The notes: a model not told the origin generated them from the sequence alone. A stretch of 64,000 bases of DNA from a virus (IMGVR_UViG_3300042562_001598:89149-153148); one strand, 5' to 3'. Shown: positions 37,475 to 41,975, counted from the first letter of the stretch. A program made the numbers and translations.

Positions 37475-39163
37475 ATGAATATATTGAGTTTATTTGACGG
37501 GATATCTTGTGGGCAAATTGCCTTGAATAAAGCGGGAATTAAATATGACAATTATTACGCTTCAGAAATTAATAAATATTCTATACAAGTAACCTCAAAA
37601 AATTATCCTGATACAATTCAACTTGGGAATGTGTCTGAAATAAATGTAAATGAATTACCTAATATTGATTTATTAATTGGTGGTAGTCCTTGTCAGTCTT
37701 TTAGTAATATGGGGGACAACACTGGATTTGAGGGTAAAAGTAAATTATTTTGGGAGTTCGTTAGAATATTAAACGAGGTAAAACCTAAATATTTTTTACT
37801 TGAAAATGTGGTTATGAAAAAAGAGTGGCAAGATGTAATATCTGAAGCTGTTGGTGTTAAACCCATCAAGATAAATAGTGCGTTACTTTCGCATCAGAGG
37901 AGAAATCGTTTATATTGGACCAATATACCAGGAATTACACAACCAAATGACTTAGATTTAGACTTCAGAGATATTATTGAACAAAATGTTCACCCTAAAT
38001 ATAATCTTACTAAAAGAGCTGTTGAAAGAGTTAGGGAAAAACAAGGTTATGATTTGGTTGCTAAAAAAGCTAAATGTCTTTTTGCGACATATTATAAAAA
38101 CAATAGTAATTCCAGGGAAGGTCAGATAGTTGAACAAAATGGTGTGTTGAGAAGATTAACTCCCAACGAATGTGAGATATTACAAACGGTTCCCTTGAAC
38201 TATACAGATTGTTTAAGTGATACACAAAGATACAAAACTTTGGGTGATGGTTGGACGGTAGATGTTATTGCACATATATTTGAGAGGTTGAAAGAACCTA
38301 AAAAAAGAAAATTAACGGTCTTATCATTATTTGACGGGATGAGTTGTGGTCAGATTGCCCTTAATAAAGCTGGTATTGAGTATGATAATTATTATGCTTC
38401 TGAAATTGATAAACACGCGATTTCAGTAACACAATATAACTATCCAAATACTATTCAAATGGGTAGTATAACTGAATTAAAAAGTTCTCAATTACCTAAA
38501 ATTGATTTGTTATTTGGTGGTTCACCTTGTCAATCATTCTCAAATGCAGGTAATGGAACTGGGTTTGATGGTAAGTCAGGGCTATTCTATGAATATGTTA
38601 GATTATTGAAAGAATGTAAACCTACATATTTTATGCTTGAAAATGTTAAGATGAAAAAAGAATGGCAGGATATTATTTCAGATGAATTAGGTGTTCAACC
38701 AATTAAGATAAATTCAAATCTTGTAGGAGCCCAAAATCGTGAGAGACTTTATTGGTCAAATATTCCAATTGTAGGGTTACCTAATGATAAAGAAGTTTAT
38801 ATTGAAGATATACTTGATATTACTTTTGATAGTAAGTATTGGTTGAAAGAAAGAAATTCTGAATTACTTTCTAAGAAAGTTAATATAGAAGGAGCTCCGG
38901 CTATTTGTTGTATTGATGTTTATAATAAGAAGTACAAGAAAGACAGAAAAAGTCCTACATTAACTTTACCACATCATAATTCATTAAGATTACTTCAAGA
39001 TGGTAAGTTTAGAAAACTAACTCCTAATGAGTGTGAGAGACTACAAACGGTTCCTGTTGATTATACTAATATTGGTATTTCAGATATTCATAGATACTCA
39101 ATGTTGGGTAATGGGTGGACTGTTGATGTAATTGCTCATATATTTCAAGGACTAAAAGAATAG
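37475..39163 (+). CDS. tandem-fused double DNA (cytosine-5)-methyltransferase (two complete modules, second starts about 38320)
   Basis: two copies of LSLFDG(I/M)SCGQIALNKAGI...GGSPCQSFSN...LLENV.MKKEW...LGDGWTVDVIAHIF in one ORF, no intervening stop. Confidence 0.8.
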   Translation: MNILSLFDGISCGQIALNKAGIKYDNYYASEINKYSIQVTSKNYPDTIQLGNVSEINVNELPNIDLLIGGSPCQSFSNMGDNTGFEGKSKLFWEFVRILNEVKPKYFLLENVVMKKEWQDVISEAVGVKPIKINSALLSHQRRNRLYWTNIPGITQPNDLDLDFRDIIEQNVHPKYNLTKRAVERVREKQGYDLVAKKAKCLFATYYKNNSNSREGQIVEQNGVLRRLTPNECEILQTVPLNYTDCLSDTQRYKTLGDGWTVDVIAHIFERLKEPKKRKLTVLSLFDGMSCGQIALNKAGIEYDNYYASEIDKHAISVTQYNYPNTIQMGSITELKSSQLPKIDLLFGGSPCQSFSNAGNGTGFDGKSGLFYEYVRLLKECKPTYFMLENVKMKKEWQDIISDELGVQPIKINSNLVGAQNRERLYWSNIPIVGLPNDKEVYIEDILDITFDSKYWLKERNSELLSKKVNIEGAPAICCIDVYNKKYKKDRKSPTLTLPHHNSLRLLQDGKFRKLTPNECERLQTVPVDYTNIGISDIHRYSMLGNGWTVDVIAHIFQGLKE

Positions 39164-39165
39164 AT

Positions 39166-40044
39166 ATGGAAAAGATAAATGTATTAAGTTTGTTTGATGG
39201 AATGAGTTGTGGTCAAATAGCTCTGAATAGAGCTGGTATTGATTACAAGAACTATTACGCATCAGAAATAGATAAAGATGGTATAAAGGTAACGATGAAT
39301 AACTTTCCTAATACTAACCAAGTTGGTAGTGTTACGGATTTGGTTGGTAGTGATTTACCTAAAATTGATTTATTAATTGGTGGTAGTCCTTGCCAATCGT
39401 TTTCAAATGCGGGAAATGGTAAAGGTTTTGAAGGTAAGTCTGGGTTATTTTGGGAATATGTTAGAATATTAAAAGAAGTTCAACCAAAGTATTTTTTACT
39501 TGAAAATGTAAAGATGCGGAAAGAATGGCAGGATATTATTTCGGAAGCTTTAGGTGTTGAACCGGTCTCAATTAACTCAAAATATTTTGTTCCTCAAAAT
39601 AGACCAAGATTATATTGGACCAATATTCCTATTAATGAAATACCAAATTCTTACACCCATTGTTTAAACGATGTGTTAGAAGAAGCGACATCAGATTATT
39701 ATTTAACTGATAAACAAAAAGCTATCCTTGATTTAAATTATAAATGGAGTGAAAATGAAATTATAAGACATAAAGCTGGAAAACACCAACAAGACAATAT
39801 CTACAGGTATGATGGTATAATGTGTTGTTTATCGGCGTCAAGTCACGGAGCGGCAAGACACTTAACTAAAACATATTTACCTAATGGTAAGTTAAGACGA
39901 TTGACTGAAAATGAAGTTGAAAAACTACAAAGTGTTCCGGTTAATTACACTAATTATGTTTCATCGTCAAAAAGATATGAAATGTTGGGTAATGGGTGGA
40001 CTGTTGATGTAATTGCTCATATATTTCAAGGACTAAAAGAATAG
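39166..40044 (+). CDS. DNA (cytosine-5)-methyltransferase
   Basis: same motif set; distinct middle (TRD) region. Confidence 0.85.
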   Translation: MEKINVLSLFDGMSCGQIALNRAGIDYKNYYASEIDKDGIKVTMNNFPNTNQVGSVTDLVGSDLPKIDLLIGGSPCQSFSNAGNGKGFEGKSGLFWEYVRILKEVQPKYFLLENVKMRKEWQDIISEALGVEPVSINSKYFVPQNRPRLYWTNIPINEIPNSYTHCLNDVLEEATSDYYLTDKQKAILDLNYKWSENEIIRHKAGKHQQDNIYRYDGIMCCLSASSHGAARHLTKTYLPNGKLRRLTENEVEKLQSVPVNYTNYVSSSKRYEMLGNGWTVDVIAHIFQGLKE

Positions 40045-40046
40045 AT

Positions 40047-41975
40047 ATGGAAAAGATAAATGTATTGAGTTTGTTTGATGGGATGAGTTGTGGTCAGATT
40101 GCTCTGAATAGAGCTGGTATTGAGTATGGTAATTATTATGCTTCTGAAATTGATAAACACGCAATTAAAGAAACCATGGCGAACTATCCCAATACAATCC
40201 AGGTTGGTGATGTTACAAAGATTACAGCGTCAGATTTACCAAAGATAGACTTATTAATTGGTGGTAGTCCATGTTTTACCGCGGGTAATTTAGTGATGAC
40301 TAATGATGGTTATAAACCAATAGAAGATATTGTTGTTGGTGATATGGTATTGACTCATAAAAATAGGTATAAAAAAGTTTTAAGAATTGGTGGTGAAATT
40401 AAAGAGACGATACGAGTAAAATCCCAAGGGTCAAGTATGATAGAAACAACTAGAAACCATCCATTTTATTGTTTTGAGAGTAATGGTGAGAATTCTGACT
40501 TTTGTTGGAAAAATATTGGTGATTTTAATAAAAAAGATAAAGTTGTATCTATAAATTGGGGTGTAAATATTGATTTTGAGAACTTTTCAAATATTGATTT
40601 ATACATATTAGGTCGTTTTTTAGCGGATGGTTGTTGTTACAAAACAAAAAGAAAAGATAGAGATAATTCTTACATCTATAAGTTTAAAATAAGTGTTGGG
40701 AAACATGAAATAGATGACTTTAAGAGTAAAGTTGATGATAGATTTACCTATATTGAAGAAAAAACTGTATATAATGCTTTTATATATAAAAAAGAATGGG
40801 TTGAGATAGGTGAAAAATTTGGCCACTTAGCTCATAATAAATTTATACCTAATTTCATATTAGATTTACCTATTGATAGACTTAAAATTTTCATCAATGG
40901 ATATATGGATGGTGATGGTCATGTTAGAAAACAAGCTTCTAAAGTCAATGTATATAAAAGAAATACGACTGTTAGTGAAAAACTAGCTCTTACATTATCT
41001 TTAGCTATACAAAAATGTTACAATGGGGTGTCAATTAATTATACAAAAAGAGAAAATACTTGTGTTATTGAAGGTAGAGTTGTAAATCAAAAAGGGACTT
41101 ATGAAGTTTCATATACTGAAAATAAAACAAAATTTAGTAAGTATAAAATAATAAATGATTATACAATTTACAACCTGACTAAAAGTGTTTCATTTGTTGA
41201 AACTGGAACTAATCCTGTTTATAATATAGAGGTAGAAGAAGATAATTCATATGTGGTTAATAATCTAATTGTTCATAATTGCCAAGGATTTTCTTTTAGT
41301 GGAAAACAATTAAACTTTGAGGACCCAAGAAGTAAATTGTTCTTTGAGTTTGTTAGACTATTAAAGGAGTGTAATCCGAAATACTTTTTACTTGAGAATG
41401 TTGTAATGAAAAAAGAATATGAACAGGTAATAACTGATTACTTGGGAGTAGAACCCATTCAGATTAATTCCACTTTGGTGGCAGCCCAAAATCGCGTGAG
41501 ATTGTATTGGACCAATATACCAAATGTTCAACAACCTGAAGATAGAAACATAAGGTTAATTGATATTTTAGAAGATGATGTAATGATTGGCGATACAATT
41601 GTTAGAAAGGAGAACCTGAACAAAGGAACTATACTTGGTAGGAGACTAAATAACGAGGGTAAGAGAGACGATTACAATAAAAGTGTGCCAATAGTTCAGT
41701 GCCTTGAGATAAGAGCGTCAAATAGAGAAAAAAGTAATTGTATAACAACCGTGGCCAAAGATAATGTTTTATCTACATTACCAATAGGTCGGCATGTTGA
41801 TGCGTTTAATAAGAAATTACCTTTTAGATATTATACGACTACAGAATATAGTAGATTACAGACTGTTCCAGATGATTATTTCAAGGTTTCAAGTGATAAT
41901 CAGATAAGAAAAATGATTGGTAATGGGTGGACTGTTGATGTTATTGCTCACATATTCAATAATATACAACTATAA
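40047..41975 (+). CDS. DNA (cytosine-5)-methyltransferase interrupted by an intein
   Basis: N-extein ...LIGGSP / intein CFTAGNLV...VHN / C-extein CQGFSFSGKQ; spliced product restores GGSPCQ motif IV. Confidence 0.8.
   Translation: MEKINVLSLFDGMSCGQIALNRAGIEYGNYYASEIDKHAIKETMANYPNTIQVGDVTKITASDLPKIDLLIGGSPCFTAGNLVMTNDGYKPIEDIVVGDMVLTHKNRYKKVLRIGGEIKETIRVKSQGSSMIETTRNHPFYCFESNGENSDFCWKNIGDFNKKDKVVSINWGVNIDFENFSNIDLYILGRFLADGCCYKTKRKDRDNSYIYKFKISVGKHEIDDFKSKVDDRFTYIEEKTVYNAFIYKKEWVEIGEKFGHLAHNKFIPNFILDLPIDRLKIFINGYMDGDGHVRKQASKVNVYKRNTTVSEKLALTLSLAIQKCYNGVSINYTKRENTCVIEGRVVNQKGTYEVSYTENKTKFSKYKIINDYTIYNLTKSVSFVETGTNPVYNIEVEEDNSYVVNNLIVHNCQGFSFSGKQLNFEDPRSKLFFEFVRLLKECNPKYFLLENVVMKKEYEQVITDYLGVEPIQINSTLVAAQNRVRLYWTNIPNVQQPEDRNIRLIDILEDDVMIGDTIVRKENLNKGTILGRRLNNEGKRDDYNKSVPIVQCLEIRASNREKSNCITTVAKDNVLSTLPIGRHVDAFNKKLPFRYYTTTEYSRLQTVPDDYFKVSSDNQIRKMIGNGWTVDVIAHIFNNIQL
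40272..41279 (+). mobile_element. intein (336 aa) with LAGLIDADG homing-endonuclease domain
   Basis: block A CFTAGNLVMTNDG, block B TTRNHPFY (TxxH), LAGLIDADG-like LYILGRFLADGCCY and FINGYMDGDGHV, terminal HN followed by +1 Cys. Confidence 0.7.

Follow-up and report, generated by a model that had tools for sequence, protein, structure and literature searches.

Four tandem C5-methyltransferase modules in three genes, with a fused pair and an intein at a catalytic cysteine, in an uncultured low-GC phage

The 64-kb stretch of viral DNA analyzed here (IMGVR_UViG_3300042562_001598:89149-153148, hereafter the window) carries a compact array of four C5-cytosine methyltransferase (MTase) modules, which probably act as orphan enzymes that methylate the phage's own DNA at multiple sites as a protection against host restriction. 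The modules are distributed over three genes, a fused pair, a single and an intein-split copy, and the three abutting open reading frames (ORFs; 562, 292 and 642 aa, all on the + strand) fill positions 37475-41975 (Table 1). A first-pass annotation made from the sequence had placed these ORFs at exactly the same coordinates, but had counted five modules in the block. Searching the whole window with module 3 (tblastn) recovered exactly four block modules, and the one further C5-MTase of the window is a Dcm-like gene (26% identity) far from the block, ~9 kb upstream, which keeps the same relative position in the related contig L081.

All three ORFs match PF00145 above the gathering score (E-values of 6.5e-85, 7.6e-45 and 3.5e-35, in order along the block) and score above the cut-off of TIGR00675. 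The first ORF holds two full-length PF00145 matches in a frame free of stops, in agreement with the head-to-tail fusion proposed at first pass. Motifs I, IV, VI, VIII, IX and X are intact and in canonical order in each of the four modules, with a target-recognition domain (TRD) between motifs VIII and IX, and motif IV of module 4 is complete only once the intein is removed. The modules conform to the C5-MTase fold with a small TRD domain, and each combines its own core with a single variable stretch, 54-82 aa long, that separates motifs VIII and IX. The sequence blocks that had been described as shared by all modules hold for the cores, which are 63-73% identical among the window paralogs, but not for the catalytic loop of module 4, which is a distinct variant (PC followed by QGFSFSGKQLNFEDPRSKLFF), or for motif X of module 1, which reads GDGWTV rather than GNGWTV. 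The middle segments diverge as had been claimed, the TRDs being ~20% identical. Because the genes are spaced by 2 nt and a consensus scan places a terminator-like hairpin at the end of the upstream gene, the array is probably co-transcribed, and the hairpin may mark the start of a separate array transcription unit. Promoter-like sites in a consensus scan occur at chance level (48 versus 48.5 expected).

The diversity of the TRDs was assessed by clustering the variable segments between motifs VIII and IX from 262 modules, parsed from the window, 85 loci and retrieved proteins, which resolved 61 TRD types (the labels T0, T1, T2, etc. derive from this clustering). With a hyphen denoting fusion and a slash denoting separate genes, the window array reads T2-T0 / T8 / T1(intein). 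There is no case among the 262 modules of a TRD type repeated within an array. Within a type, the TRD is conserved equally to or more highly than the core (75-92% versus 66-88% identity), as in T2 (75-82% versus 66-72%) and T8 (77-88% versus 72-77%). Conservation within types combined with divergence between types fits discrete, selected DNA specificities, and because each module has its own TRD of a distinct type, it would most likely methylate a different short sequence. The different specificities expected at first pass are thus supported, albeit indirectly.

Related arrays are built from the same types in other arrangements. Contig L082 carries T2-T0 / T8 followed by an intein-containing ORF ended by the contig edge, contigs L083-L085 carry T2-T5 / T1, and other proteins combine T5-T1, T5-T1(intein) and T5-T20. 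The largest array seen consists of six consecutive separate genes, T22 / T2 / T12 / T11 / T31 / T1 (L009; IMGVR_UViG_3300042506_000543, 9989-15635), and L003, L022, L030 and L036 have three-gene arrays each. All four types of the window (T0, T1, T2 and T8) are also present in single-module proteins, including stand-alone T2 enzymes in L008-L011 (L009 among them) and single-module T0 enzymes in L001, L002, L003 and others, with TRDs that are 92% identical in L001/L002.

The composition of the window speaks to the selection acting on this phage. The palindrome GATC does not occur in the 64 kb (0 observed, whereas a Markov model predicts 154 and shuffled sequences give 165 +/- 12), and TCGA (5 versus 72 expected), ACGT (11 versus 78) and GCGC (4 versus 20) are strongly depleted. 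GTAC, CATG and CTAG occur at ~0.4-0.5 of expectation, and AGCT, TGCA, CCGG, GGCC and CGCG are not depleted. The extreme depletion of several 4-bp palindromes reveals strong selection on the genome by Type II restriction, and the overall pattern is consistent with a dual strategy in which some sites are removed and others are methylated. GATC is also missing from many related low-GC IMG/VR loci.

No family match suggestive of a nuclease was found in the flanking ORFs at 35000-37405 and 42142-42724, within the libraries used for each ORF (NCBIfam and PHROGs covered most flanks, and Pfam covered the ORFs at 35933-36706 and 36725-37405), and the MTases therefore look orphan. Two further MTase genes that had been noted outside the block, one Dcm-like and one of the beta class, are confirmed by family match (Table 1). 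The latter, an amino-MTase (N6-adenine or N4-cytosine), reads DLPY at motif IV, where (D/S)PPY is the norm. Since GATC is absent from the window, this enzyme cannot serve as a Dam-type GATC methylase on this stretch. Together, the array and the two additional genes would pre-methylate progeny phage DNA, the methylated DNA would resist several host Type II restriction systems, and sites left uncovered would be eliminated from the genome by selection, with GATC as the candidate example.

The MTases could instead mainly serve other ends, such as self-marking against a phage-encoded nuclease that breaks down host DNA or the control of gene expression or packaging, or could be selfish cassettes of little benefit, which we consider unlikely. 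The flanking genes could hide a nuclease, the homing-endonuclease intein and the frequent recombination show selfish mobility at the locus, and few accessory genes are as common in viromes as those for MTases (PMC11309003). Against this, the genome is under direct selection by Type II restriction, as the avoidance of palindromes shows, the non-redundant TRD types of each array and the purifying selection on TRDs fit a breadth of protection, and orphan phage MTases are, as generally known, an established anti-restriction device (PMC10477858). Anti-restriction self-methylation, as presumed at first pass, stands as the best reading given the extreme site avoidance and the lack of a matched nuclease-like neighbor, though the role itself is one that we infer.

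It should be noted that several points weigh against this overall account. The activity of the modules and the splicing of the intein are predictions from sequence. The genome scan indicated no host, its sole matches being five contigs from metagenome-assembled genomes whose taxonomy is mixed. A novel nuclease partner may hide among the flanking ORFs, which are without detectable homologues; restriction enzymes are often undetectable by homology. When observed/expected ratios of 4-mer palindromes were compared by TRD type across 42 non-redundant loci, in which GC-rich sites are few and hosts vary, no consistent association between TRD type and depletion emerged, and a recognition sequence could be assigned to none of the TRDs. 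GCGC is depleted in the window, yet loci with T1 only are without GCGC depletion, so the avoidance data do not map simply onto the array. Further, co-transcription is predicted from the gene spacing and a weak terminator scan.

The fused gene raises the question of how its two modules work. Type IIS systems use a pair of MTases, or fused MTases, to modify both strands of an asymmetric site, and a head-to-tail MTase fusion is the classical solution to such a site. An obligate pairing of modules 1 and 2, each acting on one strand of a single asymmetric site, would be in keeping with this and with the short, basic linker, but is improbable and was rejected. The fusion partner of T2 is T0 here and T5 in close relatives, that of T5 is elsewhere T1 or T20, and both T2 and T0 exist as stand-alone enzymes; this pattern of TRD types argues against an obligate pair. 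An AlphaFold2 model of the fusion, built with eight fused homologues, has no confident inter-domain arrangement and is too poor to show how the two domains are placed (pLDDT 68, pTM 0.46, with low confidence in the TRDs). Modules 1 and 2 would instead be two self-sufficient enzymes joined by a Lys-rich linker. In addition to the pairings T2-T0, T2-T5, T5-T1 and T5-T20, fused doubles occur in P0015 (T45-T46), the P0047 group (T15-T16) and P0065 (T6-T53), and at least four different linkers are found among them (KEPKKRKLT, EGLKPVKKKVNKKLN, the P0015 linker and an acidic P0047-type linker). The several linkers indicate that fusion arose several times and was retained, probably after originating by chance from the tight tandem packing of the genes.

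The third gene is interrupted by a 336-aa intein (residues 76-411), as the first-pass annotation had recognized, with matches to Hint, Intein_splicing and LAGLIDADG families. It has the features of a class 1 intein, opening with C76, containing TTRNHPF and ending in LIVHN before C412, and both LAGLIDADG motifs retain acidic residues, although the LAGLIDADG_3 match (E 2e-4) is slightly below the Pfam cut-off. The +1 Cys of the intein is the catalytic Cys of motif IV of module 4, so the activity of this module should depend on splicing. The LAGLIDADG intein would splice out of the precursor and rejoin GGSP to CQGF, restoring the catalytic Pro-Cys motif, and module 4 would be active only thereafter.

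An intein-free allele is present in L083, from which the intein is precisely absent: DNA homology to the window ends at 40274 and restarts exactly at 41280, and the uninterrupted protein (305 aa) reads GGSPCQGFSFSG. The predicted spliced module 4 is 98.4% identical to this protein, and the N-extein has 91.7% nucleotide identity to the same allele. A query with the intein by itself matched 73 protein clusters, most of them with PF00145 and with identities down to ~24%, one being a 216-aa mini-intein, and all seven sequences inspected have their intein at this Pro-Cys position. Isolates also have related inteins under genes that are annotated as cytosine methyltransferases, namely Escherichia phages A4, ph0011 and UE-S1, Lactobacillus phage Nyseid and Mannheimia phage 587AP2.

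Published phage methylase inteins reside in N6_N4 MTases of mycobacteriophage and actinophage (PMC5050341, PMC9957025), and no description of a C5-MTase intein was found in the literature searched. The two cases are alike in having a LAGLIDADG intein in a conserved motif of a phage methylase, with intein-free alleles in relatives and within-gene recombination, but here the host protein is a C5-MTase (PF00145) and the insertion is at the catalytic Pro-Cys of motif IV.

The interruption of module 4, along with the GDG in place of GNG in motif X of module 1, could be taken as decay, with some modules dying paralogs, the array redundant or partly dead and the intein-split copy a pseudogene. There is little to recommend this: none of the four modules has lost a catalytic motif, the intein retains every splicing block and its two LAGLIDADG motifs, the module 4 extein is nearly identical to its uninterrupted allele, and the TRDs are conserved across distant contigs.

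At the fusion junction the sequence runs IAHIFERLKE-PKKRKLT-VLSLFDGMSCGQ with no in-frame stop codon, and the other two boundaries both read GLKE-TAG-AT-ATG-GAA-AAG-ATA-AAT-GTA, the stop and ATG that had been reported for the unfused paralogs. At the fusion this segment measures 21 nt, versus 20 nt at the unfused boundaries, which puts modules 1 and 2 in the same frame. The fused ORF recurs, one residue off the window translation, on contigs ENA ERZ27272063 and JGI 3300042888, and a 558-aa relative with the same module 1 and linker and a different second module is found on contigs ERZ27272099, JGI 3300042382 and 3300046002. The fusion is authentic, and the concern over sequencing error raised with the first-pass annotation is thereby answered. 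That it is an assembly or sequencing artefact joining two separate genes, for instance through an indel in the A7 run at 38296-38302, as the homopolymer CCTAAAAAAAGAAAA at the junction and the stop and ATG at the other boundaries might suggest, can be dismissed almost entirely, given that a single indel would not yield a stop-plus-start junction from two modules in one stop-free frame, that the junction is identical on five independently assembled contigs from five samples and two pipelines, that KEPKKRKLT is kept in P0002-P0005 ahead of a different second module, and that independent fusions have other linkers.

Differences among close relatives reveal a turnover of modules at this locus. Proteins flanking the array in L083-L085 are 85-94% identical to those of the window, and the DNA is ~90% identical across 36722-38770 (module 1, the linker and the N-terminal core of module 2), but homology is broken across the module 2 TRD and is back at 39918. 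Identity between the paralogs in the window is similarly patchy, with 93-100% over stretches of 54-60 nt versus a core background of 60-78%. An exact 86-nt direct repeat, extending without mismatch 66 nt leftward and 20 nt rightward, brackets exactly one 881-nt module unit, that of module 3, and the two copies are a likely substrate for its precise deletion or duplication. Two variants of the catalytic loop (a, QSFSNAG.G.GF.GKS; b, QGFSFSGKQLNF.D.RS) were compared with TRD types T0, T1, T4, T5 and T6, and all four combinations occur, indicating that modules are exchanged by recombination.

The array would thus turn over by cassettes, with homologous recombination inside the conserved cores swapping TRDs, adding or deleting whole modules and sometimes fusing neighbors. 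Extended to the subfamily as a whole, this would be a recombination-driven cassette system in which the cores act as portable homology arms and TRDs or modules are swapped, stacked (up to six) and fused into poly-specific enzymes, a tentative proposal for which the odds are presently somewhat short of even. An in-frame insertion of ~250 aa, charged or low-complexity and not an intein, was observed between the 'DVTKIK' segment and motif IV in L080 (9980-11593) and in P0022, P0023 and P0024. A read-through intron or a ShiLan-like insertion element, of the kind reported from actinophage methylases (PMC11855218), could account for it.

Multispecificity in phage C5-MTases has an established precedent. 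M.SPRI, M.Phi3TI, M.Rho11sI and the SPbeta enzyme (the work of Trautner and Noyer-Weidner) place several tandem TRDs inside one catalytic core. The Bacillus phage multispecific C5-MTases (mentioned in PMC8936443) resemble the array in providing orphan phage C5 activity that covers several restriction specificities and in having modular, exchangeable TRDs on a conserved core. The array lacks consecutive TRDs within one core; every TRD is paired with a complete core of its own, and it is the tandem genes and the fusions of whole domains that provide breadth. Fused two-domain MTases are also known, as in M.FokI (two N6-adenine domains) and Dmt of phage P1 (N6-adenine plus C5), which likewise have two complete MTase domains per polypeptide; the fusions described here are C5-C5, and their interchangeable partners are also found unfused. 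The MTase arsenals of chloroviruses and other large viruses also comprise several genes for MTases of different specificity (PMC7248222, PMC7253447), but there the genes are scattered, frequently accompanied by nucleases and drawn from diverse families, unlike the four same-subfamily paralogs placed head to tail in the array. Descriptions of C5-C5 fusions or of tandem C5-MTase arrays were not found in the literature searched, which yielded only the N6_N4 methylase inteins and general surveys of virome MTases.

By sequence, the best solved relatives of the modules are the catalytic domains of DNMT3A and DNMT3B (E ~4e-24), with M.HhaI close (7e-23). Alignment figures are 30.3 with 244 residues aligned (33%) for DNMT3B, 28.6 with 283 residues aligned (28%) for M.MpeI and 28.4 with 279 residues aligned (26%) for M.HhaI. 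The likeness to DNMT3A/3B includes the motifs LSLFDGI, GGSPC and R-x-(Y/F)-W-x-N-(I/L)-P, and the segment G-x-x-W-(T/S)-V-x-V-I-x-H-(I/L)-F-x-x-LKE. Unlike those enzymes, the array proteins are without PWWP or ADD domains, which are N-terminal in the animal proteins, and their TRD is not reduced as in DNMT3 but is a full small domain that aligns with those of M.MpeI and M.HhaI. Judged by these alignments, the core is DNMT3-like and the TRD is a small domain of bacterial type. Database entries for these phage proteins carry the label 'DNMT3A', as do such genes in a virome paper (PMC11309003). The prokaryotic origin of DNMT3 is considered unresolved (PMC3227630), and among prokaryotic viruses this abundant phage clade may be the one most closely related to the DNMT3 catalytic domain.

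Table 1. Coordinates of the MTase array and other annotated features, in window positions.
Feature	Position	Strand	Details
Dcm-like C5-MTase	27744-28718	+	Outside the tandem block; PF00145 1.8e-61
Terminator-like hairpin and T-run	37391-37410	+	End of upstream gene; consensus scan, weak evidence
Fused double C5-MTase gene	37475-39163	+	562 aa; modules 1 and 2 in one frame; ORF with two PF00145 matches
Module 1	37475-38290	+	TRD type T2, 37985-38146
Module 1 motif I	37487-37513	+	SLFDGISCG
Module 1 motif IV	37679-37696		GGSPCQ
Module 1 ENV	37799-37810		
Module 1 motif VIII	37895-37918		QRRNRLYW
Module 1 motif IX	38150-38194		
Module 1 motif X	38243-38260		GDGWTV
Fusion linker	38291-38317	+	KEPKKRKLT, Lys-rich; in place of stop and start
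Module 2	38318-39160	+	TRD type T0, 38819-39007
Module 2 motif I	38324-38350		
Module 2 motif IV	38516-38533		GGSPCQ
Module 2 ENV	38636-38647		
Module 2 motif VIII	38732-38755		
Module 2 motif IX	39011-39055		
Module 2 motif X	39107-39124		
Exact 86-nt direct repeat, copy 1	39100-39185	+	Module 2 3' end, TAGAT, module 3 5' end
Module 3, single C5-MTase	39166-40044	+	292 aa; TRD type T8, 39685-39891
Exact 86-nt direct repeat, copy 2	39981-40066	+	Module 3 3' end, TAGAT, module 4 5' end
Module 4 precursor	40047-41975	+	642 aa; intein-interrupted C5-MTase
Module 4 N-extein	40047-40271	+	Motif I to LIGGSP
Intein (residues 76-411)	40272-41279	+	336 aa; Pfam Hint_2, Intein_splicing, LAGLIDADG_3; NCBIfam intein_Cterm; Cys1 (CFTAGN), terminal LIVHN
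Intein block B	40446-40466		TTRNHPF
Intein LAGLIDADG motif, first	40599-40631		LYILGRFLADG
Intein LAGLIDADG motif, second	40887-40919		IFINGYMDGDG
Intein block F	41217-41258		
Module 4 C-extein	41280-41975	+	Opens with +1 Cys of CQGFSFSG; TRD type T1, 41577-41822
Module 4 motif IX	41826-41870	+	
Module 4 motif X	41919-41936	+	
Amino-MTase (N6-adenine/N4-cytosine)	54576-55400	+	PF01555 6.4e-28; motif IV before motif I, beta-class order

The array belongs to an uncultured, low-GC phage of an essentially uncharacterized lineage. No GenBank phage covers at least 80% of the MTase block (the best reaches 46% coverage at 70.6% identity), none of 80 IMG/VR loci shares flanking genes with the window, and its syntenic relatives are the short metagenome contigs L081-L085 only. 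The ten largest ORFs of the window gave uninformative PHROG/Pfam matches, and no tRNAs were found in the window; almost all of its large ORFs are without a PHROG or Pfam match. Tandem duplication appears to be frequent in the phage. An adjacent paralog pair (35000-35470 and 35457-35930; 156 and 157 aa, ~28% identical) immediately precedes the array, and a second adjacent pair (4989-6443 and 6500-7888; 484 and 462 aa) has C-terminal leucine-rich-repeat-like matches. Between 58000 and 62000 the GC content rises to 36% from ~29%, long + strand ORFs are few and GC skew is negative (-0.36 at 60-62 kb), which suggests an opposite-strand block or a foreign origin.

Orphan MTases are a main counter-defense of phages against restriction, and their specificities in uncultured phages are largely obscure. 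The locus recombines known elements, namely phage orphan MTases, multispecificity, fused MTases and methylase inteins, and current understanding is not overturned; the most interesting aspect is the family-level cassette pattern. The intein on the catalytic cysteine would offer a ready-made case of enzyme activity gated by splicing, and the family constitutes a natural library of compact (~280 aa) C5-MTases, each with a discrete recognition domain, for specificity mapping and the building of epigenetic tools. If the cassette system is borne out, it would add to the multi-TRD enzymes of Bacillus phages a second route to multispecificity, one with a different architecture, and would be a phage counterpart of bacterial hsdS shufflons, through which phage populations would quickly re-tune their methylation repertoire to the restriction systems of local hosts. 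This modular logic of one core and many TRD types, with arrays, fusions and an intein, could explain how such phages keep pace with diverse host restriction-modification systems.

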